From: a virus
Taxonomy: Duplodnaviria; Heunggongvirae; Uroviricota; Caudoviricetes
Virus record (IMG/VR): IMGVR_UViG_2534681831_000034
Reading direction: 5' to 3' (one strand)
DNA length: 17,560 nucleotides
Under the pieces are notes generated by a model, which saw nothing but the letters and a program-made list of their open reading frames with translations, was not told where the DNA came from and made no database searches. Every line of letters starts with the position of its first letter. Within the stretch, counting starts at the first letter, position 1. Below, piece by piece: positions 1 through 17,560 of this stretch. The position numbers and the translations under genes were made by a program.

Positions 1-10
1 AACATCCTCC

Positions 11-592
11 TTACCCAGCAATAGGATTAAATCTCACCGCATCCTGCAAGTAATCCGGCGCAAGATGGGCATAAATCATCGTTGTCTGAATCTTTGCGTG
101 CCCCAGAATTTTCTGGAGCGTCAGAATATTGCCGCCGTTCATCATGAAATGACTGGCGAAGGTGTGGCGCAGCGCATGAACAGCCTGGCCGTCAGGAACA
201 TCAGGTGCGACCGTTTTGATGACATCGCGAACCAATGAATAATCCAGCGTCGGAAACACCAGTTTCCCGCCCCGTTTTTTGATCTTTTCAAACAGGCTTT
301 CAGAAATAGGAACGGTACGGTTTTTGCTGTTCTTCGTTTTTGAAAAAGTGATTCGACAATGAAGAACACGGCGCTGCTCCAGTGCCGCTACCTCGCCCCA
401 TCGCGCCCCGGTCGACAGAAGGATTTCGACGGCCAGCCGTTCATCGGGATTTTCAGCCAGTGCATCCAGCAACTGAACACATTCAGACTTACTCAGATAT
501 CCCATTTCACGCTCGTTAACCTTCATTCCTTTAAGGCCTTGAACGGGGTTATCGTTAAGAAAATGGCCGGATGAGATGAGTGCGGTAAACAT
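11..592 (-). pseudogene. int: 5'-truncated P2-type tyrosine integrase (C-terminal catalytic domain only)
   Basis: The translation carries the catalytic-domain signatures of tyrosine recombinases: TGARWGEV (box A Arg), HALRHTFASHFMMNGGNILTLQKILGH and TTMIYAHL (catalytic Tyr). The frame is open only 18 codons upstream of the first Met (in-frame stop at 647-649), and no N-terminal arm or core-binding domain is found in any frame upstream. A P2-type integrase is about 337 aa; about 190 aa are present. Confidence 0.7.
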
Positions 593-694
593 CGCGCTTA
601 ACGCCCCAATCTCTCGATTTATGGTGCTCCAAGGATTATTTGATCTTTACATCCGTGGTCGTGACAACAGAGCACGCACTACAAAACCGGAGAA

Positions 695-953
695 TGTGGA
701 TACCCTTTATTTCACAGTAGACGACTGCTACCGCGTGGACTTCACACCACACGGACTGGCGTTGCACTGCCTGACACCGCACGGCGAATCACTGCTGGCG
801 TATTACGACTCCCCGGCCTCCGTATTTGCGGCAATGCTGGCGCATCGCACTGCTGGCGGGTGTGCCTCGCTGAGTGAATACACCGCTGAATTTAACCGCC
901 TTTCCACCATCTTCTTGCAGGAGTGGCAGCGCGTGACGGGATACCAGCCATGA
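695..953 (+). CDS. hypothetical small protein, translationally coupled to the replication gene A
   Basis: ORF in the six-frame track (576-953). I prefer the GTG at 695 because it follows a GGAGA Shine-Dalgarno-like sequence, and because the 576 start would overlap the integrase remnant on the opposite strand. Its stop (TGA 951-953) overlaps the ATG of A at 950 (ATGA). No motif recognised. Confidence 0.35.
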
Positions 954-3790
954 GTGAGTTTGCATGGAGCTGGAATGAACCACGACCAGCCATTGATCCG
1001 GCCAGATTTACGGAGCACAGGCAGGAAACTGAAACCGACCTGCAACGCGCCATCCGTTACTACCTTGAGGCAGACAAAAAGGCTCTGGAAGAACAGGAAG
1101 CGAAGGAGGAAGCCTTTTTCGCACAATCCACCGTGGGTAAAAAACTCATGGCATCCCTTGAGGAAGCCGGACAGCGTGAAAAGCTGGCACAGAACATCAT
1201 CAGTAAGCGTCAGGCAACAGAACAAGACCCGGTGGCCCGTGCTTTTGCCACACTGAAGGTGCTTCCCGTTTATCTGCGTGAACCTCTGAGCCGCCACCTC
1301 TCTTTCCTGCGCAAAAAACAGGAAGCCGATCGCCAGAAAGGCAAAAAGAGCTGGCAGGCTGAACGCTACGCGCGCGGAACCCTGCGCAAAATATTCGAAC
1401 GTCTGGACCGCACCGATCACCGCTGGCTGACACCGGGTTATCGCTCCCTTGCCGGACGCGAACGCCTGGACGATTTGCTTTACCTGCCGCAGCTCAACAA
1501 ACACCAGATACAGACGCTGGCCACCATGACGGCGGCGATGTTCAGCAGCACCTTCGAAAAACTCTGCGATGGCTTTGGCGCGACTGATGGCGAACTGACC
1601 ATGGATGTAACGCTGAAGGCGTATCAGATGCTGGCCCGCATGGCGTTACACCTGCACGCCATGCCTCCACATTATGACGCACTGACAACAGACAAAGACC
1701 GGAGGAACGAACCGGACACGGAGCTGCTGCCGGGCGCAATCCTTCGCCTGACCTGTGCGGAATGGTGGAAACGCAAACTGTGGCTGTTACGTTGCGAGTG
1801 GCGGGAAGAACAACTCCGCGCCGCCTGTCTGGTTTCCAGAAAAACATCGCCCTATCTGAGTCAGGACGCGTTAAGCGAGTTTCGCGCACAGCGCGAGAAA
1901 ACACGCGATTTCCTGAAAAGTTTCATGCTGGAAAATGAAGACGGGTTCACGATTGATCTCGAGACGGTGTATTACGCGGGAGTAAGTAACCCGGTTCACC
2001 GTAAGGCAGAAATGATGGCCACCATGAAGGGACTGGAACTTCTGGCCGAAGCCCGTGGCGACAGAGCGGTGTTTCTGACCGTCACCTGCCCGTCAAAATA
2101 CCACGCAACAACGGAGAACGGTCATCCGAACCCCAAATGGAACGGGGCCACCATGCGCGACTCCAGCGATTACCTGGTTAACACGTTTTTTGCGGCGGTC
2201 CGCAAAAAACTGAACCGCGACGGCCTGCGCTGGTATGGCATCCGCACGGTGGAGCCTCACCATGACGGCACTGTGCACTGGCATATGATGGTCTTTGCAC
2301 ATCCGGACGAGATTGAAACCATCGTGTCCCACGTCTGCGATATTGCCATTCAGGAGGACCGCCACGAGCTGGGCGATGACATAACTCCGCGTTTTAAGGC
2401 GGAGTATGTCGACGGCTCAAAAGGCACACCAACCAGCTACATCGCCACCTACATCGGAAAGAACCTGGACAGCCGCGCCGTGGATGGCATCGACCCGAAA
2501 ACGGGCAAGCCACGCGTTGACCACGAAACCGGAAAATCAATGGCCGAGAGCGTGGAGCGCGCCATCGGCTGGGCGCGCCTTCACCGGGTCCGTCAGTTCC
2601 AGTTCTTTGGCATCCCCTCCCGTCAGGTGTGGCGTGAACTGCGCCGCCTTGCCAGCCAGATGGCACGCAATCCGGAAGGCCCGCAACGGCTGAAAGATGA
2701 TGCAATGGATGCGGTACTCGCTGCCGCCGATGCCGGGTGTTTTGCCACCTACATTGAAAAACAGGGCGGCGTACTTGTTCCACGCAAAGACTACCTGATT
2801 CGCACCGCCTACGACCTCGCAGATGAGCTGAATGATTACGGCGAACAGAGCGTACAGATTTACGGGATCTGGTCACCACTCATCGGGGAATCCTCCCGTG
2901 TGTGCACGCATCCGGATAACTGGAAACTGGTAAGACGTAAACCGGAAACGGAAGACAGCGCCCGCGAAAATGGTTTTGACCTTCAGGGCGGCCCTGCCGC
3001 CCCTTGGACTCGTGGCAATAACTGTCCCCGTGTACAGGAAACGGACAACAACGGGGCAGAACAGCCGGAAGAACGGCCAGCACCGTGGCCGCAGCTCCCT
3101 GACGGCGTTGAAGTGAACGAATGGATGCGCTCACTGAAACGGCACGAACGCCGGGCGCTGATGCGTTCGCTTCGTGACAAACAGGCAAAAAACAGCAGTG
3201 ATGAAATGCAGAGCTGGACACAGAGCCGCAAACAGCAGCGGCCTTTGCCTGATAACCACGAATTACTCGCTAAAGAATGGCGGGAGTCTGCCGAATCTCT
3301 CGGCCTGCATATCGGTGAACAGCAGATGCAGCACCTGCTACGGGGCGGCAGCCTGTACGTTGACGGCAGCATCATTGCACCGCAGGGATATGAAATTGTA
3401 CGCAAACCGGATACCCGCCCGTACAGCCGAATCACGCAGCTCTGGCAGCACCTGAGCCGTAATCACGGCGTAAGCAGCACGGAGATCCGCCATAACCCGG
3501 TCGCCAGCTATCTGGCACAGCTGGGGGCATCAGACCCCGAAGCCGCCGCACGCCTGGCATCCGCACTTCAGCAGGATCAGAACACCATGAAAACACCCGT
3601 TACCGTGCTTTCTGACATGCTGCGCGCCATCCGCGACGCAGAGCACGCACAGAGAATCAGTGAAACCACTGAACGCGCCAGCCGCAAAGCAGACCTGCTG
3701 CAGGGTGGCCTGACCAGTGGAAACAAAAAACAGACAGAAACGGGACTCACGAATCCCGTAAATGAGCAAAAAACGCGCAGCGATATATGA
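950..3790 (+). CDS. A: phage replication initiation endonuclease, P2 gpA family (HUH rolling-circle nickase)
   Basis: Long ORF (track 923-3790). It contains an HUH-type metal-binding motif (HWHMMVF) and a paired-tyrosine motif (YIATYIGK) typical of the P2 A / phiX174 A superfamily. The start at ATG 950 is preferred over GTG 923 because of the ATGA coupling with the upstream ORF; either is possible. The protein is about 200 aa longer at the C-terminus than P2 gpA as I remember it (761 aa). Confidence 0.8.
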   Translation: MSEFAWSWNEPRPAIDPARFTEHRQETETDLQRAIRYYLEADKKALEEQEAKEEAFFAQSTVGKKLMASLEEAGQREKLAQNIISKRQATEQDPVARAFATLKVLPVYLREPLSRHLSFLRKKQEADRQKGKKSWQAERYARGTLRKIFERLDRTDHRWLTPGYRSLAGRERLDDLLYLPQLNKHQIQTLATMTAAMFSSTFEKLCDGFGATDGELTMDVTLKAYQMLARMALHLHAMPPHYDALTTDKDRRNEPDTELLPGAILRLTCAEWWKRKLWLLRCEWREEQLRAACLVSRKTSPYLSQDALSEFRAQREKTRDFLKSFMLENEDGFTIDLETVYYAGVSNPVHRKAEMMATMKGLELLAEARGDRAVFLTVTCPSKYHATTENGHPNPKWNGATMRDSSDYLVNTFFAAVRKKLNRDGLRWYGIRTVEPHHDGTVHWHMMVFAHPDEIETIVSHVCDIAIQEDRHELGDDITPRFKAEYVDGSKGTPTSYIATYIGKNLDSRAVDGIDPKTGKPRVDHETGKSMAESVERAIGWARLHRVRQFQFFGIPSRQVWRELRRLASQMARNPEGPQRLKDDAMDAVLAAADAGCFATYIEKQGGVLVPRKDYLIRTAYDLADELNDYGEQSVQIYGIWSPLIGESSRVCTHPDNWKLVRRKPETEDSARENGFDLQGGPAAPWTRGNNCPRVQETDNNGAEQPEERPAPWPQLPDGVEVNEWMRSLKRHERRALMRSLRDKQAKNSSDEMQSWTQSRKQQRPLPDNHELLAKEWRESAESLGLHIGEQQMQHLLRGGSLYVDGSIIAPQGYEIVRKPDTRPYSRITQLWQHLSRNHGVSSTEIRHNPVASYLAQLGASDPEAAARLASALQQDQNTMKTPVTVLSDMLRAIRDAEHAQRISETTERASRKADLLQGGLTSGNKKQTETGLTNPVNEQKTRSDI

Positions 3791-3866: not shown

Positions 3867-4826
3867 ATGAAAATTTGTATCGACGACGGCTCCACCAACA
3901 TCAAGCTGGCATGGACTGAGAACGGCGAACGCCGCAACGCCATCAGCCCGAACAGCTTCAAGTCGGAATGGTCTGCGCCGTTCGGTGGCACGCAGCCCGC
4001 GAACTACATGCTTGATGGCGTGCGCTATGGTTTTGATCCGGTCAGCGATCGCTTTGTCCAGACGACCGACACGCAATACCAATACAGTGATGTGAATGTC
4101 ATTGCCATTCATCACGCGCTGGTCAAATCAGGCATCACGCCACAGGAGGTGGATGTGGTTGTCACCCTGCCACTGAGCGAGTATTTCGACACAAACGCAC
4201 AGCCGGACATAGCCAACATCAACCGCAAAAAAGCGAACGTTATGCGCCCGGTGGAGTACCAGAACGGCGAAGCATTCACTATCCGTAACGTGCGGGTTAT
4301 GCCTGAATCCATTCCGGCTGGCTTTAAGGCACTGGCTGACATGAGTCCGTTTGAATCCCTGCTGATTGTGGATTTGGGCGGAACCACGCTGGATGTGGCA
4401 AAGGTTCAGGGGCAGCTGGCAGGTATCAGCCAGGTGTTTTGCGATCCACACGTAGGCGTTTCCCTGATGGCTGATGCCGTGCTGTCGGTGATGGCCACTA
4501 ACGGTATGCGTACCAGTCACCACATCGCCAATACCATTATTGAGCACCGTCACGATGAAGCCTGGCTGCGCCAGCACATTCACAATGACGCGCATTACAA
4601 CAGCCTGATGGCGGTTATTCGTGAAAAGGAGGAGACACTGAAACAACGAGTGATCCGCGCGCTGGCGGGTTTTTCCGGTTACGGGCGGGTGATGGTTGTC
4701 GGTGGAGGGGCGGAGATTGTGGCACCCGCTATCCGCGAAGCCTGCGGAGTTAATGCGACTTTCATCACGGACGGGGTGCCACATTTTGCTCTGGTTAATG
4801 GGCTGTACGCAATGAACAAGGAGTAA
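3867..4826 (+). CDS. parM: ParM/StbA-family actin-like plasmid segregation ATPase
   Basis: 319 aa with the actin-fold motifs IDDGSTNIKL (phosphate 1), DLGGTTLD (phosphate 2) and VVGGGAE (adenosine). It is collinear with plasmid R1 ParM (StbA) as I remember it. An AAGGA Shine-Dalgarno lies about 9 nt upstream of the ATG. Confidence 0.8.
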   Translation: MKICIDDGSTNIKLAWTENGERRNAISPNSFKSEWSAPFGGTQPANYMLDGVRYGFDPVSDRFVQTTDTQYQYSDVNVIAIHHALVKSGITPQEVDVVVTLPLSEYFDTNAQPDIANINRKKANVMRPVEYQNGEAFTIRNVRVMPESIPAGFKALADMSPFESLLIVDLGGTTLDVAKVQGQLAGISQVFCDPHVGVSLMADAVLSVMATNGMRTSHHIANTIIEHRHDEAWLRQHIHNDAHYNSLMAVIREKEETLKQRVIRALAGFSGYGRVMVVGGGAEIVAPAIREACGVNATFITDGVPHFALVNGLYAMNKE

Positions 4827-4830
4827 ACCA

Positions 4831-5142
4831 ATGACGACACCAACCAGAAGAATAAGTTTCTATCTGAAGCCAGCTGCCGTCAAGAACGAAGGAGAAGCAT
4901 GCGCCTGGCTGGACAGCCTTACACCAGAAGCCCGCAAAAGCGGCCAACGCGTGGCTTTTCTGGCCGGGCTGGCACTTCTGAAGACGAATCCGGCAGAGGC
5001 TTACCGACTGGCCGCATGGGCTGATGATGAGATGTTACCTGTGACACAAATCAGCTCAAAAAAGTTTGAAGCACAGTCTGCACCAGTGGCTAAGATAACC
5101 AGCCAGATGGCTGGGAATATCCGGGCGTTATTTCCTGAGTAA
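4831..5142 (+). CDS. parR: ParR/StbB-like centromere-binding adaptor
   Basis: 103 aa, starting 4 nt after the parM stop with an AAGGAG Shine-Dalgarno. The N-terminal region (RRISFYLKP...LDSLTPEARKSGQRVAFLAGLALLK) resembles the ribbon-helix-helix N-terminus of R1 ParR as remembered. Gene order parM then parR matches type II partition loci. Confidence 0.6.
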   Translation: MTTPTRRISFYLKPAAVKNEGEACAWLDSLTPEARKSGQRVAFLAGLALLKTNPAEAYRLAAWADDEMLPVTQISSKKFEAQSAPVAKITSQMAGNIRALFPE

Positions 5143-5270
5143 AAGCATCTGCGCGAAAAATGCTCACATTTATAGAAACAGTATCATTCCATTTGGCGCA
5201 CTTACTTCAATAATCGATCTGTTAAACAAATAGATTGTCTATTATCTATCGATTAAAACGATCAATTATC

Positions 5271-5299
5271 TTGACAGTAATGTGCCTTTTTGTAAGATC
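5271..5299 (+). promoter_or_regulatory. candidate sigma70 promoter (TTGACA-N16-TAAGAT)
   Basis: A perfect -35 hexamer TTGACA at 5271-5276 and a -10-like TAAGAT at 5293-5298, inside an AT-rich tract containing ATCGAT-centred inverted repeats. Predicted by eye only. Confidence 0.3.
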
Positions 5300-5347
5300 G
5301 TTCGCATTGTGAGCGACAAGATAATTGCGCGGCATTGTCCATGCAAA

Positions 5348-6893: not shown

Positions 6894-7923
6894 CATCAAG
6901 AAGAGCATAAGAATTAAAACGGATCACCTCTTCGCCAAGCCAGTCATTGATGTGCTTCATGGCCTCCATAACGGGCATCAGCTCGTTAATTGCATAAACC
7001 CGCGCGGCCTTCTCCACATCACCAAACGCACTTTTTTCGCCCGGCATCGCCCCCATCAGTTGCGGCGGAACACGGTGCGCAGCCAGCACATCATCACGGG
7101 ATGCCGCCTTAACATTCATGAACTCATCTTTTGCGGTGATCTGCTGGAACGGCAAAATTTGCACCCCCTCTTTGCCCCCGTTGGGCGCATGAATGAGCAC
7201 GTTTTTAAATGCACCACTACCACGTGCACCCTGTAATGTTTCTTTCAGGGAGTCCATGCTTTCGCGGTTTACCTGCGCTGCACCGATGTAGATGATGCAC
7301 CCGGCGTGGGATCCGTTGTCGTAATACAGTTTTCTGAACATGTCCGCCGAATGAGACAGGCTGGCCGAGAGTAATGCGCCGAGATATTCCGGCATGCCGT
7401 AGATTTCCTGGTTAATATCCGGATTCATCAGGTGGCACACTTTGCCAGGGCGAAACTGAAACGCGTCCTTGCCATCCTGCACATACCACCATGATTCAAG
7501 ATCGCTTCCGCGTCGCATGTATTTCGCCAGTGCGTGCCGTAATTTAAGCGGTTCGCCGAGCATATTGCTTCGAAGCTCAAGGTATGCGTTACCGAACACA
7601 AACCAGTCCAGCGCCAGCGCCGAGAAATCCTGCCGGGAAAGCAGCGGGTGCGGAATATAGCAGCCGAGCAATACATTGCGCTTAAAGTAAAGCGCAGACT
7701 GATGCCAGGACGTTTGCCGGGCGGCTCTTGCCAGACCGTACCAGTCCACCGGGGTTTCATACCACCGCCCGTTATCAGCACAGTACATATTGTCCAGCAA
7801 ATCATGCCCGGTCAGGCGATAAGGACCATCAAAAGTGAATGCACTGAGCGACGATTCTTTCCTGAGCGCATCAGCGAGATCAATGCGTGAACTCATGCGC
7901 ACTTTTTTATTTTTTCTGCTCAT
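6877..7923 (-). CDS. Q: portal protein, P2 gpQ family
   Basis: 348 aa, matching the length of P2 gpQ (about 344 aa) and its position immediately downstream of the terminase ATPase. Its ATG (7921-7923) overlaps the stop of the upstream gene (ATGA coupling). Confidence 0.85.
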   Translation of the reverse strand: MSRKNKKVRMSSRIDLADALRKESSLSAFTFDGPYRLTGHDLLDNMYCADNGRWYETPVDWYGLARAARQTSWHQSALYFKRNVLLGCYIPHPLLSRQDFSALALDWFVFGNAYLELRSNMLGEPLKLRHALAKYMRRGSDLESWWYVQDGKDAFQFRPGKVCHLMNPDINQEIYGMPEYLGALLSASLSHSADMFRKLYYDNGSHAGCIIYIGAAQVNRESMDSLKETLQGARGSGAFKNVLIHAPNGGKEGVQILPFQQITAKDEFMNVKAASRDDVLAAHRVPPQLMGAMPGEKSAFGDVEKAARVYAINELMPVMEAMKHINDWLGEEVIRFNSYALLDEKTAP

Positions 7924-9673
7924 CAGAACTCCATAACCGTGAAACGCTCGTTTTCTCCTTCGCCGCCAATTGGTTCGTTAATGACAGCAAGCATGGTTGC
8001 CCACGCAAGGTCGCCGTGGCTGATCCCCCTCGCGCGGTCCGTTTCGTAAGTGATAAAACCGCCCGGTGTTTTCACCTTACGCACGGCGTTAAAGGCCGCG
8101 ACCAGCTCGCGTTCGGCGCGATCGTATTCCCACCGCCCGGCACGCATTATTTGCAGCATTTTCAGTACCAGCGACCGTTTTGATGACAGCGTGAAGGTGT
8201 ACGGAATAGCAGCAGGGAAAAACCGTTTCACTATCTGATAAACAGCCTCCCCGTTCCCGCCCGTCACATCAATGCCGATGTGTTCCACGTTGTAGCGACA
8301 CGTGAACTCTTCAATGACTCTGGCCTGTTCTTCAAACTCCAGCCCCTGAACGCGTCGCGTCTCCACCGTTCGAAAACGGCCACCAGGAACAGCCGGAGGA
8401 ACCACCACAGACACAGCGCCGCTGTCGCCGTTGCCACTGCTGCCGTTTGCGTCATACCCAATCCATACCGGACGATTCCCCATCGGGCGGGGAGCAAAAG
8501 GTTTCCAGTCTTTCCAGTCGTCGTATCCGTCAACACCGCAGCCAATCAGGATATTCAGGTTAAATGCCGATTCCCCTTCGCGGACAAACTCACACATATA
8601 GAGATTGAGGAACTCGTCTTCGGTGTTTTCATCACGAATTTCGTCGATATCGGTGTGTTTCCAGCCGTGATTAACCACATCTTCCAGCGTGACAATTTGC
8701 CGCCACGTCCGGTCAGGGCAGATAAGCCCGTTATGCAGCGTATTCCAGTCCACAGAAAAACGCCGGCGTTTATGCGTGGCCTTTTTCTCGTTCCAGCGGT
8801 CGCCGTTCCAGTAGGCGTATGCCTCGTGCGTTTCGGTGGATGGCGTGGAGAAGTAGGTGCGCCGCAGTCCGCTGAGGGTTGCCATAGCGCCAGCCACCTT
8901 GCGTAGTTCAGCAAAGCGACTGACCCAGAAAAATTCATCAAAATAAAAATTGCCCGTATAGGACTGCGCCGACGCAGCAGAAGTGCCGAGAAAATGCAGC
9001 TCTGCGCCATTGGAGAGGATGATTTTATCGCCCCCTTTCAGCTCCACATCAACTTCAGCCGCAGCCTTCTGAATAATGCTTTTAAACTGGAACGCCTGAC
9101 GACGCGACGCAGACAAAAAATCTGGTTACGCTGGTAAGGTTGCGCCACATCGTCACGCAGCGCCATCAGCAGAGCTTCCTGTGCAAAATACCAGGTCGCC
9201 CCAATCTGTCGGGATTTCAGGATCATCCTGTTACGTATCCCGGCTTCCCTGCAAAGGGTCAGGGAGTCAAACCAGCCCCGCTGATGCCACTCCAGCCTGC
9301 TGATGATTTTTTCCCGCAGTGCGGAAATCTGTTCCGGCGTGAAATGATTTTTGAGTTTTTTCGCCCGGCCTTTCTTTCCTGCGGCCATCACATCCGGATG
9401 GCCATCATGCAGCTTTTTAAGCTGCCGGGTCAGCAGGTCTATTTCCTTAAAATCACCGCCTGTTTTATTCTGTTTTTCAGTAAGCTGGATGAGGCGCGCA
9501 TCGATGGACTGCGTGACACGCTGCACGGGTGGCGTTTCATCCCACTGGTCGCGTTTTTTCCACGCATAAATCGTGTTCGGGTTTATTCCCATCAGACGTG
9601 ATATTTCTGCGGGCGGATAACCCTGCCAGTAAAGTTGCCGCGCACGCTGGCGCACAAAAGCGTCCTGAATCAT
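7923..9673 (-). pseudogene. P: terminase large (ATPase) subunit, P2 gpP family, interrupted by an apparent 1-nt frameshift
   Basis: Two overlapping minus-strand ORFs (9673-9038, 211 aa, and 9116-7923, 397 aa) together span about 583 codons, close to P2 gpP (590 aa). The first ORF ends in an out-of-frame tail. The frames switch at an A6/T6 homopolymer at 9115-9120; adding one T would fuse them into one frame (..QRNQIF-LSASRRQAFQF..). Confidence 0.75.
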
Positions 9674-9827
9674 TGCTCCCCCTGAGTAATTACAGGAAGA
9701 TTACCCGCGCGCGAAACCGTTCTCCTTAACCCCCTGTTCTGGCCGTTTTCTTACAACAAAAGCCCTTTGTATCAGCCTGTTACGCTTTGCCATCATGACT
9801 GAAGAACCAGTCAGAGGGGCAAAAACT

Positions 9828-10664
9828 ATGGCTAATGAAAAAAAGACATCCCGCAAAAAGTTTCGCGTGGCTGTCTCCGGATCAACTGTTGATGGCCGTG
9901 AAATCAGTCCGGTGCATCTGCGTGAAGCCGCCGAGAACTTCAACCCGGATGTTTACGCTGCCCGCGTGAACGTTGAGCACTATCTCTCGCCATGCCCGTC
10001 AAGCGAATTTTCCGCAATGGGCGATGTCACCGCACTGAGTACGGAAGACATTACGGAAGGTCCGCTGGCCGGACGTACTGCGCTGTATGCAGAAATCGAA
10101 CCGACCGAGCGCATGAAGCAGCTTGTCGCGGACGGCAAGAAAATCTATTCCAGTATCGAACTGCACCCGCAGTTCTCCGTTAACGGGCGTGCCTATCTGG
10201 TCGGGCTGGCGATGACCGACACCCCGGCAAGCCTGGGCACTGAGCGCCTGAAATTCACGGCACAGCAACGTCAGGCGGTAATGACGTTCAACAGTGTCCA
10301 GGGTGAAGCGCCGCTTATCTCCGAAGCCATCGAGTCTGAAATCATCGAAATGGCAGAACAACGCCAGGAAGAAGGCACCCAGTGGTTTAACCGCGTAATG
10401 GGGATTATTGGCCGTGGCCGCAAAGCGGATGACGCCAGTTTTTCCCGTATTCAGGAAGCGGTGGAAGGCGTCGCAACGTCACAGGCCGACATTATCGACC
10501 GTTTTAATGTGCTGGAAACCCGCCATCAGCAGGACCGCCAGAAAATTACGTCACTGACCACAGAGCTGACAGCACTGAAGGAAAAACTGCGCACGCAGGA
10601 CGGCGATCCGCAGAACCGGTTCACCGCAACGGGCGCAGCCTCCGACCAGCTGGCTGACTTCTGA
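9828..10664 (+). CDS. O: capsid scaffolding protein, P2 gpO family
   Basis: Collinear with P2 gpO (about 284 aa) as remembered: ..RVAVSGSTVDGREIS.., ..YLVGLAMTDTPASLGTERL... ATG 9828 is preferred over the track start at 9795 because AGAGGGG lies 8 nt upstream of it. Confidence 0.85.
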   Translation: MANEKKTSRKKFRVAVSGSTVDGREISPVHLREAAENFNPDVYAARVNVEHYLSPCPSSEFSAMGDVTALSTEDITEGPLAGRTALYAEIEPTERMKQLVADGKKIYSSIELHPQFSVNGRAYLVGLAMTDTPASLGTERLKFTAQQRQAVMTFNSVQGEAPLISEAIESEIIEMAEQRQEEGTQWFNRVMGIIGRGRKADDASFSRIQEAVEGVATSQADIIDRFNVLETRHQQDRQKITSLTTELTALKEKLRTQDGDPQNRFTATGAASDQLADF

Positions 10665-10687
10665 TAAGACAAAGGAGCAAATTTTTT

Positions 10688-11740
10688 ATGAATCTGGTGA
10701 TGTCAGATATTACCCGCAACAAGCTGGGTTGCTATATGGCGCAGCAGGCGTCGCTTAATAATATCCCGGTTTCTGCGCTGGTATCGCGATTTACCGTAGA
10801 ACCCTCGGTGCAGCAGCGTTTTGAAAACGCCTCAAAGGAAAGCACCGAATTTACAAAAAGAATTAACGTGATCGGCGTGACCGACCAGAAAGGCGAAAAA
10901 ATCCTCCTGGATACCACAGGACCGATTGCGCGCACGAATACCAGTTATGACGGCACAAAACGCCGTAACCCGAATAACGTGGTTGATCTGAAAAACCGCA
11001 AATACCAGTGCGAACAGGTGAACTACGACACGTTTATTTCATATCCGCAGCTTGATGCCTGGGCGGCACATCCTGATTTTCAGTCCCGCATCAGCGCACA
11101 GATTGCCCGACAGGTGGCGCTTGACCGCATCATGATCGGTTTCAACGGCACGTCTCACGCGGATGAGTCCAACTTCAGCACCAACAAGCTGCTTCAGGAC
11201 GTTAACGTGGGCTGGCTGGAGCACATCAGAACCGACGCCAGCGAACGCGTTATGAATGACGTGACGCTGACCTCCCGCAACATGGACAACACCGTGGCGC
11301 ACGCGGGTAAGTATGCGAACGCTGATGCACTGGTACAGGACGCACGCTCATCCCTGCTGGATGAATGGCACAAGGAAGCTGACGACCTCGTGGTGATTAT
11401 GGGGCGCAACCTGTTTAACTCGCTGCGTCTGCCCGTGCTGAACAGCATCAGCGGCCAGAATCCCAATGCGGAATTACTTGCCGGGCAGCTCATCCTGTCA
11501 TCGCGCACCATTGGCGGGCTGGGCGTGTTCCTTGCGCCGTTCTTCCCGGATGCAACGATGCTTATCACCTCGTTCAACAACCTGTCGATTTACTGGCAGA
11601 AAGGTTCAATGCGTCGCCTGATGAAAGACGAACCGGAATACAACCGCATCGCCACCTACCAGTCCATCAATGACGCTTATGTCGTTGAAGACTATGGCAA
11701 GTGCGCGATGGTCACTGGCCTGAAGTTCGCCGACAGCTAA
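10688..11740 (+). CDS. N: major capsid protein, P2 gpN family
   Basis: 350 aa. Conserved blocks shared with P2 gpN as remembered (FTVEPSV, IMIGFNGT, VGWL, YVVEDY), and correct position after O. Confidence 0.85.
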   Translation: MNLVMSDITRNKLGCYMAQQASLNNIPVSALVSRFTVEPSVQQRFENASKESTEFTKRINVIGVTDQKGEKILLDTTGPIARTNTSYDGTKRRNPNNVVDLKNRKYQCEQVNYDTFISYPQLDAWAAHPDFQSRISAQIARQVALDRIMIGFNGTSHADESNFSTNKLLQDVNVGWLEHIRTDASERVMNDVTLTSRNMDNTVAHAGKYANADALVQDARSSLLDEWHKEADDLVVIMGRNLFNSLRLPVLNSISGQNPNAELLAGQLILSSRTIGGLGVFLAPFFPDATMLITSFNNLSIYWQKGSMRRLMKDEPEYNRIATYQSINDAYVVEDYGKCAMVTGLKFADS

Positions 11741-11785
11741 TCAACTCACGGCGGGCATCATGCCCGCCTGTAACGGAGAGAAAAA

Positions 11786-12586
11786 ATGATTACTCCTGCA
11801 CAGCAACACTGGCAGAACGTGATGGCACAGCGCGCAGGCCGGGCGAATGAAGGCGTGGACCACGCCGCGCGTACCGCGCATGAAGAGGTGCTGTATCGTC
11901 TGCGTCTGGCACAGGCCCGCCTTAAGGGCGTACAGGCCAGAAGCGCGAAAGCCGCCATCAAAAAAGAGTTATTGCCGGACTTTTCCGGCTGGATTGAGGG
12001 AACGCTGGAGGCTGACGGCGGGCAGCAGGATGAAGTGATTGCCACGCTGATGGTGTGGGCGATTGACTGCGGCGATCTTCCGCTGGCGCTGCGTATTGGT
12101 GCGTATGTGGTCCGTCATAACCTCATTATGCCGGATAACTTTGGCCGTACTGCTGCCACGGTACTGACCGAAGAAATCTGCAACCCGGTACTGACGCAGG
12201 CCGGGACGGATGCCGACGCGGATTTATCCGCCTTTATCGAACCACTGGATACCCTCCGGGAGATTGTCACCGACCAGGACATGCCGGACGAAGTGCGCGC
12301 CAAATTATGCAAGGCGTGCGCCTTTGCCCGTCGTGGTCTGACCGATGCAGACAACATGGCCTTATCACTGAAGCTGCTGCGCGAAGCGATGCACCTGAAC
12401 CCGAACGCAGGTGTGAAACGCGAGATTGCAACCCTTTCCCGCGCCCTGAAAAAAGCCGATTCCGCAGCCGAACCAGAAGACGCCAGCGCACAGCAGGCGC
12501 AGGACGAAAGCAGCAAAAGTAAAAAGACAACGCGGAAGCCTGCAACACGAAAAACCACCGCGACGCAGAAGGCGAAGCGCGGTTAA
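11786..12586 (+). CDS. M: terminase small (endonuclease) subunit, P2 gpM family
   Basis: 266 aa. Similar to P2 gpM as remembered (N-terminal ITPAQQHW.., DMPDEVRAKL.., basic lysine-rich C-terminal tail), in position after N. Confidence 0.8.
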   Translation: MITPAQQHWQNVMAQRAGRANEGVDHAARTAHEEVLYRLRLAQARLKGVQARSAKAAIKKELLPDFSGWIEGTLEADGGQQDEVIATLMVWAIDCGDLPLALRIGAYVVRHNLIMPDNFGRTAATVLTEEICNPVLTQAGTDADADLSAFIEPLDTLREIVTDQDMPDEVRAKLCKACAFARRGLTDADNMALSLKLLREAMHLNPNAGVKREIATLSRALKKADSAAEPEDASAQQAQDESSKSKKTTRKPATRKTTATQKAKRG

Positions 12587-12603
12587 CGACTGACCCCGTC
12601 AGC

Positions 12604-12674
12604 GGGCGGCGTGCGCGGTGTTCCGGTTTGACTCCGTGACCGTTTACACCGCGCACCCACCGCCCGATTTTTTT
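12604..12674 (+). terminator. terminator/attenuator-like structure between M and L
   Basis: Imperfect long inverted repeat GGGCGGCGTGCGCGGTG (12604-12620) / CACCGCGCACCCACCGCCCG (12647-12666), followed by a T7 run (12668-12674) just upstream of the L ribosome-binding site. Confidence 0.35.
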
Positions 12675-12688
12675 CAGGAGTGAACCCC

Positions 12689-13183
12689 ATGAGTATGGTT
12701 GCCAGAACTGAACCCAGACCCGCAGAGGACGACATCACCGATACCGATGATGGCGATACCCGCATTTCAGCGGGTGCATTCTGGCCGGATATTGTGCTGC
12801 GCGAGCTGCGTCTGGCGGTACGACTGCCGGGCCGCGTGACCACCTCCCGCCTGCTGCATACTGCCACCGGGGCTGTGGCACACGTTACCCGCGAGCTGGA
12901 AGCATGGCAGCAGGAACAGCAGGCAGCTGGCCATCAGACGCTGGCCGATGTTCCGGCCCCTGTAATTAACGGAGAAAGCGTCAATCTCTGGCACTGGCGC
13001 AATGCGGTTTATACCGCCACGCGCGCCCTGATTCTGGAGCGTTATCGTGATGCAGACACAACGGACAAGGGCGACCGCCGGGCGGACGCTCTGGATATAC
13101 AGACATCGGATTTGTGGCGTGATGTGAGCTGGGCCATCTCTGACATTCTGTGCCGCCCGCGAATCTTTGCGGAGTTGTGCTGA
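12689..13183 (+). CDS. L: head completion/stabilisation protein, P2 gpL family
   Basis: ATG at 12689 with AGGAG 8 nt upstream (the track begins at GTG 12680, inside the Shine-Dalgarno). The C-terminal block ..ERYRDADTTDKGDRRADALD..LWRDVSWAI.. resembles P2 gpL as remembered. Confidence 0.8.
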   Translation: MSMVARTEPRPAEDDITDTDDGDTRISAGAFWPDIVLRELRLAVRLPGRVTTSRLLHTATGAVAHVTRELEAWQQEQQAAGHQTLADVPAPVINGESVNLWHWRNAVYTATRALILERYRDADTTDKGDRRADALDIQTSDLWRDVSWAISDILCRPRIFAELC

Positions 13184-13383
13184 TGAAAGTGAAGGCACTG
13201 GAAGGCGACACCGTGGATTCGCTCTGTTTCCGGTACTACGGCACGACGCAGGGCGTCACCGAAAAGGTGCTGGATGCCAACCCCGGACTCTGTCAGCAGG
13301 TATTTCTGGACGCCGGGCAGGAAGTTGAGATGCCGGAGCCGGAGAAGAAGAAACGAGAAATGATTCAGTTGTGGGGGGAGTAG
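13183..13383 (+). CDS. X: tail protein X, P2 gpX family
   Basis: 66 aa beginning MKVKALEGDTVDSLCFRYYG, collinear with P2 gpX (about 67 aa). Its ATG overlaps the L stop (TGATG). Confidence 0.8.
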   Translation: MKVKALEGDTVDSLCFRYYGTTQGVTEKVLDANPGLCQQVFLDAGQEVEMPEPEKKKREMIQLWGE

Positions 13384-13385
13384 CA

Positions 13386-13709
13386 GTGAGCACCATTCAA
13401 ACAGGGATCACAGAGCAGGTTATTGCGTGGCTCTTTGACCACCTGCCAACGGTGTATGCAGTAGGCGCGGCGGTCAGCATTTCCGCGCTGATGAGTCTTT
13501 ATGACGGACGAACACTGGTTCAGACCGTAACGGGATCGCTGGCGTGCGGCGTTCTTGCCATGGCCGTGGCCGGGTCGTTGCGCTTCTTCGGGTTTCCTGA
13601 AGATGCCGTGACGTTTATCGGCGCATCAATCGGTTTTATGGGTGCAGAGAAAGCACGCGACAAGGTTATTGCGGCCTTTAATCGCAGGGTGAAGGAGAAG
13701 GACGAATGA
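13386..13709 (+). CDS. putative holin
   Basis: About 107 aa with two or three hydrophobic segments and a charged C-terminal tail, located immediately upstream of the endolysin. GTG 13386 is preceded by GGGGGGAG. It does not resemble P2 gpY in sequence. Confidence 0.55.
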   Translation: MSTIQTGITEQVIAWLFDHLPTVYAVGAAVSISALMSLYDGRTLVQTVTGSLACGVLAMAVAGSLRFFGFPEDAVTFIGASIGFMGAEKARDKVIAAFNRRVKEKDE

Positions 13710-14098
13710 GCAACACATTTAAATTCAGCAGCCGGAGCGAAAAGAATTTGCAGGGCGTAAATCCTGATCTGGTGAAAGTGACCCGACGGGCACTGGAAAT
13801 CTCGGAAGTGGATTTTGGTATCACCGAAGGGTTGCGCAGCCGTTACCGCCAGAAGCAACTGGTGGCCACGGGTAAGAGCCAGACCATGAACAGCCGCCAC
13901 CTTACGGGGCATGCCGTGGATGTTGTGGCTTATATCGGCAGCCAGGTGTCATGGGAATGGCCGCTGTACGAAAAAATCGCAGCAGCATTCAGACAGGCCA
14001 GCCGGGAACTGAATATTCCGGTGGAATGGGGCGGCGACTGGAAGACCCTGAAAGACGGACCGCATTTTCAGTTACCACACGGAGCCTATCCGGCATGA
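13706..14098 (+). CDS. endolysin, peptidase M15-type (zinc-dependent L-Ala-D-Glu / D-Ala-D-Ala peptidase family)
   Basis: 130 aa with an H..D..H arrangement (..SRHLTGHAVDV.. and ..DGPHFQ..) characteristic of M15 peptidase endolysins. ATGA overlap with the holin gene. Confidence 0.7.
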   Translation: MSNTFKFSSRSEKNLQGVNPDLVKVTRRALEISEVDFGITEGLRSRYRQKQLVATGKSQTMNSRHLTGHAVDVVAYIGSQVSWEWPLYEKIAAAFRQASRELNIPVEWGGDWKTLKDGPHFQLPHGAYPA

Positions 14099-14502
14099 AG
14101 CTCTGGCCCACGCTTGGCGTCGCTTTCCTTCTGATTGCCGGATGGGGAACATCCATGCGTCTGTCTTGGTCGCTGGGCCGGGAGAACGCCAGAAACGAAG
14201 CACAGGCCAGCACCCTGAAAAGTACCGCCGACACCCTGAATATCATCAGCGCCGGGGGACAGGATATGCAGCAGGTGCTGGCGCAACTCCGCGTGGAAAA
14301 TCAGCAACGCAATCAGGACGGAGAGGTCAGACGTGAACAGCTACGCAACGATATTGCAAAAGATGAATGCGCCCACGCTTTGCCTGACGCTCGTTTTACT
14401 GACAGGCTGCGCAGGCACGCAGAACGCGCCACTGCCAGCGCCGTCAGTCCGGCTTATACCGCAGACGCTGACCATACCGGTAACGCCTCCCCGCTTCCCT
14501 GA
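14095..14502 (+). CDS. i-spanin (Rz/LysB-like)
   Basis: N-terminal transmembrane segment (LWPTLGVAFLLIAGWG) followed by a charged, Q/R-rich, coiled-coil-like periplasmic region. ATGA overlap with the endolysin stop. Confidence 0.7.
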   Translation: MKLWPTLGVAFLLIAGWGTSMRLSWSLGRENARNEAQASTLKSTADTLNIISAGGQDMQQVLAQLRVENQQRNQDGEVRREQLRNDIAKDECAHALPDARFTDRLRRHAERATASAVSPAYTADADHTGNASPLP

Positions 14503-14653
14503 TACTCCCACATGGGGAAATCTCGGTATATGGGGCGACCGCCTTCTGGATGCACTGGAAACCTGTAACGCGGATAAACGGGCCATTGAATTACTGGAAC
14601 AGCGCAGGCTGCAACGACTGAACAACGAGGATAACAACCATGCTGAAAACTGA
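14333..14653 (+). CDS. o-spanin (Rz1/LysC-like outer-membrane lipoprotein), starting inside the i-spanin gene in another frame
   Basis: Lipoprotein signal with lipobox LLTGC, followed by a proline-rich mature region. GTG 14333 has a GGAGAGG Shine-Dalgarno; ATG 14363 is an alternative start. Overlapping architecture as in P2 lysB/lysC. Confidence 0.65.
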   Translation: MNSYATILQKMNAPTLCLTLVLLTGCAGTQNAPLPAPSVRLIPQTLTIPVTPPRFPDTPTWGNLGIWGDRLLDALETCNADKRAIELLEQRRLQRLNNEDNNHAEN

Positions 14654-15107
14654 TTCCCTGCGTGAAGCCATGACCCGTTCATGCCGATGGTGTCAGGCCA
14701 ACCCGGAAAAATTCACCATTTTCGTGGAGAGCGGCAACATTGAAACGACCGGAGAAACCCCATCGTTTGTTTACCGCTATCAGATGGTGATGTTTGTCAT
14801 GGATTACGCCGGGGAGCTGGACGACCTCACGCTGCCGCTGCTGGCGTGGTTATCCGAAAATCAGCCACAGTTGTTGCTCAACCCTGAGCGTAATCAGGAC
14901 ATCAAATTCTCCGCCGTTATCAATGACGATGACAGCGCCGATCTCCTGTTTACGCTCCCCCTGCGGGAACGCGTTCGCATCACGCGCAGCAGTCAGGGGA
15001 CACCGCAGGCAGAACACCTGCCGGAGCCAAAACCCCGCCTGCCATCTCCCGAAGGCGACTGGTCGCATGTATTCCAGGATGTGACGTGGGGTGAAAGCGA
15101 TGGATAA
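14640..15107 (+). CDS. R: tail completion protein, P2 gpR family
   Basis: 155 aa. MLKTDSLREAMT.. and ..LAWLSENQP.. are collinear with P2 gpR (155 aa) as remembered. Confidence 0.8.
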   Translation: MLKTDSLREAMTRSCRWCQANPEKFTIFVESGNIETTGETPSFVYRYQMVMFVMDYAGELDDLTLPLLAWLSENQPQLLLNPERNQDIKFSAVINDDDSADLLFTLPLRERVRITRSSQGTPQAEHLPEPKPRLPSPEGDWSHVFQDVTWGESDG

Positions 15108-15735
15108 GGCATTCACCCGCGTGGATGAAACCTTTGAGGCCATCCGCGACAGCCTGAATCAGCAGGCCATCAATAACATCGCCAGAAAGCTGGCACAGGA
15201 TTTACGCCGCGCCCAGCAGGCGCGTATCCGGTCACAGAAAGCGCCGGACGGGACCGCGTGGACACCACGCAGACGCCGCGTAACCCGGATACAGGAACGC
15301 ATTCGCTTTATCTGGAATAACGAAGCACGCACGCTGAAAAACTGGCATCACGACACGGGGAAATACGGGCGAACCATTACCGGGTGGGATGAGGATAAAA
15401 ACAATATCCGCACGTTTTACCGGGATGACATCGACCGTTTTCTGGAAATACGCACCCGGCGCATCAACCAGGACAGCACAAAGCGCGTCCCCATGTTCGT
15501 AAAACTGCGCACCGCCCGCTACCTGAAAGCCCGTGCAGATGCTTCCGGTGTGACGGTGGGTTACAGCGGCGTGGCCGCACGTATTGCCCGCGTTCATCAG
15601 TTCGGTGAGCGCGATCAGGTTGCGCCGGGCATTTTCACCGATTACCCGGTACGTGAGCTGTGGGGTATCAGCCAGGCAGATGAGCGCCTGATTTATAACA
15701 CGGTGCTGGGCCGGATTGCGGAGGCTGTACGGTGA
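15100..15735 (+). CDS. S: tail completion / virion morphogenesis protein, P2 gpS family (enlarged)
   Basis: The conserved gpS-like ends (..AQDLRRAQQARIRSQKAPDGTAWTPRRR.. and ..ARVHQFGERD..) are present. At about 211 aa it is some 60 aa longer than P2 gpS, with the extra length in the middle. Confidence 0.65.
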   Translation: MDKAFTRVDETFEAIRDSLNQQAINNIARKLAQDLRRAQQARIRSQKAPDGTAWTPRRRRVTRIQERIRFIWNNEARTLKNWHHDTGKYGRTITGWDEDKNNIRTFYRDDIDRFLEIRTRRINQDSTKRVPMFVKLRTARYLKARADASGVTVGYSGVAARIARVHQFGERDQVAPGIFTDYPVRELWGISQADERLIYNTVLGRIAEAVR

Positions 15736-16313
15736 GCGCTGAACTCATGCGACTGCTGAGCAACATCATCCGTACCGGGATCATCTCTGAAGTTGATGAG
15801 GAATCCTGGTGCGTGCGCGTTCGCAGCGGCGAACTGGAAACAGGCTGGCTGCGCTGGAACACCACGCGCGCGGGTGCCTTCAATGTGTGGTTGCCGCCAT
15901 CACCCGGCGAACAGGTGGTAATTGCCTGCATCGGCGGCAACCCGGAAACCGCCATGATAATTGGCAGTCTGTGGAGTGATGCCATTCCGGCACCCGGCAA
16001 AAGCCTGAAAGAAATCGTGGTCAGCGCGCCGGATGGCGCGGTGTTCCGCTACGACGCGGACGCAGGCGCACTGAGCGCCAGCGGCATGAAAACGGCCACC
16101 CTGCAGGCATCCGTCAGTGTGACGCTGGACACACCTGTCGTGGAATGCACAGACCTTCTGAGAACAGCGACGCTTGACGTCACAAAAGGAGGAAAGATGA
16201 GCGGCAATATCACGCACAGCGGCGGCAACTTCACCTCAAACGGCATTACCGTGCATACGCATAAACACGGTGGCGTGAAAGGCGGCAGCGATTCGACAGG
16301 AGGCCCGCAGTGA
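15732..16313 (+). CDS. V: baseplate spike protein, P2 gpV family
   Basis: 193 aa. The C-terminal ..VTKGGKMSGNITHSGGNFTSNGITVHTHKHGG.. and N-terminal ..IRTGII.. are collinear with P2 gpV as remembered. Confidence 0.85.
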   Translation: MSAELMRLLSNIIRTGIISEVDEESWCVRVRSGELETGWLRWNTTRAGAFNVWLPPSPGEQVVIACIGGNPETAMIIGSLWSDAIPAPGKSLKEIVVSAPDGAVFRYDADAGALSASGMKTATLQASVSVTLDTPVVECTDLLRTATLDVTKGGKMSGNITHSGGNFTSNGITVHTHKHGGVKGGSDSTGGPQ

Positions 16314-16660
16314 CAACCCGCTACACAGGAATGAATCCGGACGGGACGGGAAACCTGAACGATATGGAGCACCTGAAACAGTCAGTCAGGGATATCCTGA
16401 CCACCCCGCTGGCAAGCCGGGTTATGCGACGGGAATATGGCAGCCTTGTGCCTGATTTGATTGACGAACCCATGAATAACACCACGCGTCTGCAATGCAT
16501 GAGTGCTGCCGTGATTGCGCTGACACGATGGGAACCCCGCATTGCCCTGGATGCCATCGACGTTGTCTGGAAAGCGGGAGGCCGCGCCGGGGTGACGCTG
16601 TCGGGCACTGTCATGCAGACCATGCAGAATGTTGAGTTAACCATCACGCTGAGGGAGTAA
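16310..16660 (+). CDS. W: baseplate wedge protein, P2 gpW (gp25-like) family
   Basis: 116 aa, positioned after V. GTG start with AGGAGG upstream. Size matches P2 gpW (115 aa). Confidence 0.8.
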   Translation: MTTRYTGMNPDGTGNLNDMEHLKQSVRDILTTPLASRVMRREYGSLVPDLIDEPMNNTTRLQCMSAAVIALTRWEPRIALDAIDVVWKAGGRAGVTLSGTVMQTMQNVELTITLRE

Positions 16661-16663
16661 ATC

Positions 16664-17560
16664 ATGCCCGCCGTTGACCTTTCCCAGTTACCGGAACCCG
16701 CCATCATCGCGGAGCCTGACTTTGAGGCAATTCTGGCTGACACAAAGGCCATGATGATTGCGGCTTATCCCGCCGAACAGCGTGAAGCCGTCTCCGCCGC
16801 GCTGGAGCTGGAATCGGAACCCCTGAACGTTATCGCCCAGACAACAGCGTTTCGTGAAATGCTGTTACGCCAGCGGGTCAATGAGGGGGCACGCGCCTGC
16901 ATGTTAAGCCACAGCGCCGGGACAGACCTGGACAACCTCGCGGGCAATATGAACACAAAGCGCCTGACCATCACTCCGGCAACGGATACCACCGACGCAG
17001 TGATGGAAAGTGACACCTCGCTGAGACTGCGGGCGCAGCGGGCGTACGATGGCCTGAGTGTTGCTGGCCCGTCAGGTGCATACGAGTATTTTGCCCGCAG
17101 CGCCAGCGGTCTGGTGCGTGATGCGCGGGCTATCAGTCCGTCTCCGGCAAATGTGACGGTTTCCATCCTGTCCACTGAAGGCGACGGCACAGCAACGGAG
17201 GCGTTGCTTAATACCGTTCGCGCCGTTCTGAATGCAGAGGATACCCGCCCGGTGGCCGACCGCCTTACTGTACAGAGCGCCAGAATCGTGACATGGCGGC
17301 TGAATGCAAAACTGTACTTTTACCCCGGCCCGGAATCCGAACCTATTCTGGCTGCGGCGGAATCGTCGTTCAGGAAGTGGCTGGCTGAGCAGGGGCTTAT
17401 CGGTCAGGACGTGGCGTTGTCCGCCATTGCTGCCGCACTGCATGTGCACGGTGTGCAACGCGTGGAGATAATCGAACCCACACAGAATATGGCCATCAGC
17501 GACATACAGGCGGCGCGCTGTGAGTCGTTCACCATCAGCGAAGGTGGGCGCAATGAGTAA
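16664..17560 (+). CDS. J: baseplate assembly protein, P2 gpJ family
   Basis: 298 aa, positioned after W; P2 gpJ is about 302 aa. The stop is the last three bases of the window, and ATGAGTAA suggests the next gene (I) starts by overlap beyond the window. Confidence 0.8.
   Translation: MPAVDLSQLPEPAIIAEPDFEAILADTKAMMIAAYPAEQREAVSAALELESEPLNVIAQTTAFREMLLRQRVNEGARACMLSHSAGTDLDNLAGNMNTKRLTITPATDTTDAVMESDTSLRLRAQRAYDGLSVAGPSGAYEYFARSASGLVRDARAISPSPANVTVSILSTEGDGTATEALLNTVRAVLNAEDTRPVADRLTVQSARIVTWRLNAKLYFYPGPESEPILAAAESSFRKWLAEQGLIGQDVALSAIAAALHVHGVQRVEIIEPTQNMAISDIQAARCESFTISEGGRNE

Follow-up and report, generated by a model that had tools for sequence, protein, structure and literature searches.

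The first 953 bases of the window, by which we mean the whole stretch of 17,560 nucleotides that was analyzed, are best understood, with a probability that we put at about 0.9, as the scar of stepwise deletions in a P88-like (Xuanwuvirus, P2-like) prophage, Phi5 of E. coli O111:H8, which is inserted in the ihfA terminator and would no longer be able to excise or be induced. The int-C-cox lysogeny/excision switch of P2-like/P88-like prophages is incomplete in the window, and the 3' part of the integrase gene is joined directly to a truncated ORF that leads into the replication gene A. We consider below the evidence for the identity of the element, the extent and order of the losses, and the alternative ways in which this arrangement might be read.

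Identity and chromosomal location of the prophage

Window 1-1500 is 100% identical to the chromosomes of the E. coli O111:H8 strains 95NR1, 95JB1, and 8B, and the whole window aligns with 95NR1 at 99.95% identity, with 5 substitutions and three one-base homopolymer gaps. The window allele was found in 3 of 5,426 complete genomes, and all complete-genome matches to the junction are chromosomal. The 95NR1 element spans btuC to ihfA and is ~31.8 kb in length; in K-12, these two genes are spaced by 100 bp. A 25-bp att core, AAAGAAAAAAGGCCGCAGAGCGGCC, is present as a single copy between btuC and ihfA in K-12 and as two copies in the prophage-bearing locus, one at each prophage end (877-901 and 32653-32677 of locus L007), with attL lying ~500 bp to the left of the window. 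Both copies are intact. Hence, the element shows the chromosomal flanks (btuC on the left and ihfA on the right) and the duplicated att core of an integrated prophage. In the K-12 spacer, the att core is part of the ihfA terminator hairpin, and integration restores the ihfA terminator at attR.

The gene content of the window, namely protein A and the P2-family capsid, portal, terminase, and tail genes in the order typical of the family, is that of a P2-like/P88-like phage, and the RefSeq annotation of the matching region agrees with such a gene set. The 95NR1 element has been listed as Phi5, an 'Unclassified Myoviridae' prophage at 2048393..2079387 (Table S1, PMC6602927), and the int-region deletion is not discussed in that genome paper. 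An identification of the window with another prophage of 95NR1, Phi9, was considered and rejected: Phi9 is without CTGCAG sites (PMC6602927), the window has two of them, and the coordinates match Phi5. In short, the element is a defective prophage of an ordinary kind that had been catalogued before, under the name Phi5 in 95NR1.

No autonomous circular replicon with the window arrangement was recovered, as the plasmid records that match start at 624-636 or at 1271 and lack window 1-623, so that none includes the int remnant. The original prediction had favored a plasmid-like derivative; this does not hold for an element that is chromosomal, between btuC and ihfA, with both of its att cores in place.

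The interval between attL and int differs between strains. In O111, it holds one hypothetical ORF of 123-131 aa (L007 1008-1379, just left of the window), and in MS6193 and MS1657, it holds two ORFs of 120 and 145 aa (L005 5186-5982 and L008 36960-37759). This interval looks like a variable cargo (moron) slot, and the final int codons vary with the neighboring cargo (NPIAG vs NPLGGA).

An integrase reduced to its catalytic domain

The int remnant (11..592, minus strand) encodes a protein of 193 aa with an ATG start. This protein covers residues 133-325 of the 325-aa full-length Int, and its identity to the full-length proteins of MS6193 and MS1657 (annotated as 325 aa from an upstream start in MS6193 and as 312 aa in MS1657) is 98.5-99%. 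It matches the Pfam Phage_integrase domain PF00589 over residues 33-178 (E 1.2e-20) and the PHROG integrase profile phrog_1 (E 1e-51), and its catalytic domain is complete, with the ARWGE, HALRH, and IYAHL motifs visible in the translation. In the full-length protein, this catalytic domain (164-309) is preceded by a weak arm-binding match (21-48) and the core-binding domain Int_N (PF24624; 56-155). When compared with a functional Int of the lambda/P2 type, the remnant thus has the catalytic PF00589 domain without a complete set of N-terminal arm-binding and Int_N core-binding domains: the arm-binding domain is gone, along with about two-thirds to three-quarters of the core-binding domain.

A tblastn search of the six frames of the window with the 325-aa homologue recovered only residues 120-324, at 628..14, and residues 1-119 had no match in any of these frames. 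Upstream of the Met of the remnant, the same frame continues for exactly 18 codons (RSNNPWSTINREIGALSA) before reaching a stop. The original prediction is thus upheld in three respects: that only the catalytic C-terminal part of Int (193 of 325 aa) is left, that its N-terminal domain is encoded in no frame, and that the frame closes 18 codons above the first Met. The 12 codons at 593..628 on the minus strand (STINREIGALSA, residues 121-132) derive from int and are untranslatable, being without a start codon. They constitute the final int-derived DNA ahead of the breakpoint and match int of strains 8E and 11128 with 100% identity as far as base 628.

In the lambda-type integrases, the isolated catalytic domain retains a weak DNA cleavage activity and neither binds core or arm sites nor forms a recombination complex. 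By analogy, the remnant is predicted to be unable to recombine attL with attR, and, being also separated from the Pc promoter, it would no longer support site-specific recombination. A consensus promoter scan of positions 1-1300 found no sigma-70-like minus-strand site upstream of the remnant; the single plus-strand site, at 216-243, lies inside antisense int, with 1.1 sites expected by chance. A residual activity, such as DNA cleavage, may persist, given a frame that is free of stops and frameshifts and keeps all the catalytic motifs. The intact frame is itself uninformative regarding selection because the deletion is recent.

In the phage and plasmid collections, the int remnant (window 1-623) has no close match, the best being a Klebsiella record with 81.6% identity over 190 bases and the P88-type int with 74-78%. 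The int allele of the window is therefore represented in chromosomal prophages only; among E. coli genomes, it is matched by more than 500.

The deletion junction and the genes that were lost

The intact prophage of MS1657 provides the reference for the missing sequence. Its genes are arranged in the order: two cargo ORFs, int, the HTH C-type repressor, a Cox-like protein (matching phrog_11533 and, weakly, phrog_575), DUF4761, a hypothetical ORF, DUF4754, three small ORFs, the 129-aa ORF, A, parM, and parR. Window 24-628 aligns with positions 1060-1664 of this reference (the 3' two-thirds of int) at 99.3% identity, and window 624-1500 aligns with positions 4433-5309 (starting at codon 21 in the 129-aa ORF and reaching into A) at 99.8%. 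The homology to int ends at 628 and that to the region upstream of A starts at 627, which places the breakpoint at 627..628, within the interval of ~600-700 where a deletion junction had been foreseen. The junction reads ...TTTATGGTGCT followed by CCAAGGATT..., with a 2-bp microhomology, CT, common to both sides at 627-628. It is not a product of chance because both of its flanks match, at 99-100% identity, sequences separated by 2.8 kb in an intact relative.

Compared with the intact MS1657 prophage, the window lacks 2,773 bp, and compared with an 8E-type intermediate, 924 bp. The larger of these segments holds codons 1-120 of int, the C gene, the Pc/Pe region, cox, seven small early ORFs (including DUF4761, the hypothetical ORF, DUF4754, and the three small ORFs; one of the seven carries a pseudogene annotation), and the first 20 codons of the ORF preceding A (hereinafter preA ORF). 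A tblastn search of the entire window with every early protein of MS1657 recovered Int from residue 120 to 324 and the 129-aa ORF from residue 21 to 129, and nothing else; in none of the six frames was there a match to C, Cox, DUF4761, DUF4754, or the other small early proteins (all E > 0.4). Likewise, no repressor or other Int was detected by tblastn elsewhere in the window in any frame. The location of both C and cox within the missing segment bears out the prediction that the repressor and excision functions had been removed. To the left of the window, where an intact arrangement might have been sought, there are only the small cargo ORF, attL, and btuC, and the N-terminus of Int could not be encoded there, as it would lie to the right in any case.

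The fused ORF, gene A, and the partition module

A single ORF separates the int remnant from A. This chimeric ORF (576..953, plus strand; 125 aa) starts with ~16 codons of antisense int DNA and continues, from 624-629 to 953, as residues 21-129 of the conserved 129-aa preA ORF with 100% identity. Correspondingly, it matches the profile phrog_3237 (function unknown) over positions 21-129 of 129, its first 20 codons being gone. The original description of one small unrecognized ORF in front of A was hence correct in the count, and the ORF can be recognized as phrog_3237 fused to antisense int. Its stop codon overlaps the start of gene A in the ATGA at 950-953.

Gene A (950..3790, plus strand) encodes an intact P2-type replication endonuclease of 946 aa (PF05840, E 1.5e-129; RefSeq WP_001288335.1). 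Downstream on the same strand are two partition genes, parM (3867-4826), coding for an actin-like ParM, and a parR-like gene (4831-5142). The ParM/ParR module directly downstream of A is conserved in integrating P88-like (Xuanwuvirus) phages, and the same A-parM-parR module is also present in the intact integrating phages P88, Chuche, and PhiR44_2, which carry int-C-cox. As judged from these sequences, parMR is a native module of the P88-like phage lineage and no sign of a plasmid, contrary to the original suggestion that it points to a plasmid-like derivative. More generally, this calls for caution, in that parMR in P2-like prophages is no evidence of a plasmid lifestyle, being standard in P88-like phages.

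Probable stepwise deletions in the O111 lineage and further alleles in other strains

The history of the loss can be followed in sister strains. Strain 8E (O111:H8) matches window 1-628 at 100% and window 627-1500 at 99.9% identity, and its two matching segments are separated by 924 additional bases. Relative to MS1657, 8E already carries two deletions, which we term D1 and D2. The first, D1, of 1,080 bp with a CAC microhomology, runs from about int codon 67 through C and cox into DUF4761, so that int and the DUF4761 gene each lost their 5' ends, and C, cox, and the divergent Pc/Pe promoter region disappeared. The 71 bp across D1 are identical in 8E and 11128, and dozens of other O111 genomes match up to window position 628 and then continue into more int sequence, which makes D1 ancestral in O111. 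The second, D2, of 769 bp with a TT microhomology, joined the beginning of an ORF of 37 codons to the preA ORF at its codon 21 in 8E. A third deletion, D3, of 924 bp with the CT microhomology noted above, would then have trimmed int back as far as codon 120 and linked it directly to the same codon-21 position. Together, 1,080, 769, and 924 add up to 2,773. Three of the junctions examined at this locus have SNPs nearby; these were read by eye from the alignments, and their deletion sizes come from BLAST coordinates.

The window allele is hence probably the 8E-like allele with the addition of D3, the loss having proceeded stepwise through D1, D2, and D3. Alternatively, one event in an ancestor that carried D1 alone may have given rise to it, in which case the right endpoints of D2 and D3 would match by coincidence or owing to a hotspot. 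These two endpoints are nearly equal (compare L004 9540-9560 of 8E with window 621-640), both falling just before CTCCAAGG at codon 21 of the preA ORF, and the common endpoint is owed either to the nesting of the deletions or to a hotspot at this site. With an 8E-like ancestor for D3, the two partners share ATGG..T.CT, which would explain the match between the D2 and D3 endpoints.

Independent alleles at the same locus are seen in other strains. A deletion of 2,517 bp with the microhomology GATACCCT, in which a 310-aa int is kept and C and cox are gone, occurs in W13-16 and in four ETEC strains. MS6193 and six other strains have a 1,661-bp deletion that extends from inside cox to just upstream of the preA ORF. 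In the O111:H- reference strain 11128, IS1203 lies after DUF4754, and the preA ORF and the N-terminal half of A are lost (L011 9141-11850); its second step of decay thus differs from that of the window. All the junctions have microhomologies of 2-8 bp, as would be expected of illegitimate, slippage-type recombination.

The nested alleles of 11128, 8E, and 95NR1/8B constitute a clean small-scale case of stepwise microhomology-mediated prophage erosion and could serve as lineage markers within O111:H8. The preservation of both nested and independent microhomology deletions within one 3-kb interval is the only mildly interesting feature of this region.

Further lesions and the question of domestication

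The terminase large-subunit gene (7923..9673, minus strand) is split in the window into ORFs of 397 aa and 211 aa by an A-run near 9114-9119 that is one base shorter than in 95NR1. In 95NR1 and 8B, both of which carry the int deletion of the window, the gene is intact (1,752 bp, with the same protein accession). The frameshift is either a private mutation or a homopolymer sequencing error, and its absence from these two strains removes it from the signs of domestication or plasmid derivation among which it had originally been counted. Two further one-base differences from 95NR1 are found at ~5802, with T7 in the window vs T8 in the run of T's that follows a terminator-like hairpin (GCGCCGATAAGGCGC), and at ~9821, with A5 vs A6 just upstream of the scaffold gene start. 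Taken together, the three homopolymer differences suggest that the source assembly is prone to errors of this type.

The recurrence of these deletions raises the prospect of a domesticated prophage, in which losses of the switch and excision functions were selected, locking in A-parMR, hok, the attL cargo ORF, and the tail genes without the risk of induction. Across different lineages of E. coli, this one locus has undergone at least five independent int-to-A deletions (D1, D2, D3, the 2,517-bp deletion of W13-16, and the 1,661-bp deletion of MS6193). All five end 250-550 bp before the A start codon and spare A, and in both 95NR1 and 8B, A, parMR, and most of the late genes are open. Nevertheless, we regard this reading as unlikely. 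For a loss of C to be viable, Pe or the lytic functions have to go with it, such that survivorship bias alone predicts deletions of this kind, and five events are too few for testing whether the endpoints cluster. Moreover, the inactivating lesions elsewhere fit neutral decay: the tail-tube gene of 95NR1, outside the window, is frameshifted, the window has its terminase frameshift, 11128 has acquired IS1203 and lost half of A, and MS6193 and W13-16 have partial portal or tail genes. It is similarly improbable, in our view, that the A-sparing deletions (five events, four alleles) reflect selection for a locked prophage with an active A-parMR and cargo, or else a hotspot before CTCCAAGG; a functional Int remnant is less likely still. 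In place of the originally proposed 'domesticated', the term 'decaying' better fits a prophage with a frameshifted tail-tube gene in 95NR1 and with differing further damage in the sister strains.

Is the short integrase native?

A more distant alternative is that the 193-aa protein is a natively short tyrosine recombinase (~200 aa), akin to FimB/FimE or to those of plasmid multimer resolution, which would belong with parMR in a phage-plasmid that never had the early region. This is compatible with a complete catalytic domain in an open frame, with intact parM and parR genes, and with the few plasmid records, one of 34 kb, that carry the A-parM segment. However, the DNA matches the 3' part of the gene for a 325-aa integrase at 99-100% identity, and this match ends abruptly, in mid-domain, at 628; the 12 int codons that precede the Met are untranslatable. 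The element is also chromosomal with duplicated att cores, intact phages of the family with int-C-cox have parMR too, and the plasmid matches begin at 624-636 or 1271, never with the int remnant. We accordingly consider a natively short recombinase very improbable. A FimB/FimE-like assignment as such was rejected: the nearest homologues are 310-325 aa in length, and the DNA match breaks inside the gene at the deletion junction.

Least credible of all is a mis-join in the source assembly, for although the three one-base homopolymer differences from 95NR1 are of the sequencing-error type, 95NR1, 95JB1, and 8B, complete genomes from Australia and the USA that were sequenced independently of one another, all three have this junction.

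A second related prophage in 95NR1

The chromosome of 95NR1 also contains Phi9, a related P2-like prophage at pdxB (2831500-2873500), which is 98.7% identical to window 6902-17560 over 10.7 kb of late genes and 96% identical to Phi5 over most of A, with an AAA ATPase and S8 peptidase pair in the place of parMR. The long near-identical repeats that are thus shared between Phi5 and Phi9 are substrates for homologous recombination or gene conversion. Phi9 has a full Int and C, which are only 47% and 42% identical to the proteins lost from Phi5, and its cox region is interrupted by IS1203 between C and cox. Hence, complementation of Phi5 in trans by Phi9, which would entail the same site specificity or immunity, appears unlikely from these sequences. 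The search for a repressor elsewhere in the replicon, which had been proposed along with the original prediction, therefore has a mixed outcome: a C protein is encoded by Phi9, but it is only 42% identical to the one that was lost.

Predicted functional consequences

Under the stepwise-deletion reading, each of the losses has a predictable consequence. With Cox gone, the prophage would be devoid of an excision directionality factor, and with C gone, of C-type immunity. Further, the removal of Pe would leave the early operon, i.e., the preA ORF followed by A, without its native promoter, and this loss would explain why the absence of the repressor is not lethal. The prophage would then be locked in the chromosome, not inducible and still decaying. 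Given its gene content, a Phi5-type prophage is very unlikely to be either inducible or excisable, and in this respect the original prediction of a prophage that is no longer an inducible phage agrees with what would follow from the deletion of the Int N-terminus, C, the promoter region, and cox.

In practical terms, Phi5 of the O111:H8 outbreak strains is to be treated as a non-excisable, defective prophage. The RefSeq labels of the two products, 'tyrosine-type recombinase/integrase' for the 193-aa protein and 'hypothetical protein' for the fusion ORF, would both be better replaced by remnant flags. Beyond such matters of annotation, the region is of little importance.

Comparison with known systems

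Among characterized phages, the closest parallels to the window prophage are P88, Chuche, and PhiR44_2, which are P2-like temperate myoviruses of the genus Xuanwuvirus. Their DNA from the preA ORF through A, parM, and parR is 95-97.5% identical to the window, with the identity starting at 624 for Chuche and PhiR44_2 and at 1271 for P88, and the order of their portal, terminase, capsid, and tail genes is the same. In contrast to the window, where the switch is deleted, these phages possess int-C-cox in full, along with 10-12 small early ORFs ahead of A. Their int is also a different allele, with 74-78% DNA identity over the last ~170-190 bases.

The prophages of MS1657, strain 165, and the O26:H11 strain 11368 are intact, have the same integrase type, and occupy the same btuC-ihfA site. 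They resemble the window closely in the 3' half of int (99.3%) and in the preA ORF and A (99.8%), and differ from it in keeping the 2,773 bp. The alleles of 8E and 11128 stand between these and the window: both have D1 in common with the window allele and are 100% identical to it over window 1-628, and 8E retains in its 924 additional bases 66 int codons, the DUF4761 remnant, the hypothetical ORF, and DUF4754.

Defective or cryptic prophages of E. coli, such as those of K-12, have typically lost int, excision, and regulatory genes through small deletions or IS insertions, with other genes remaining intact. Set against these, the window prophage has nothing distinctive in kind; it is a well-resolved case of the same process, with the intermediates preserved in sister strains.
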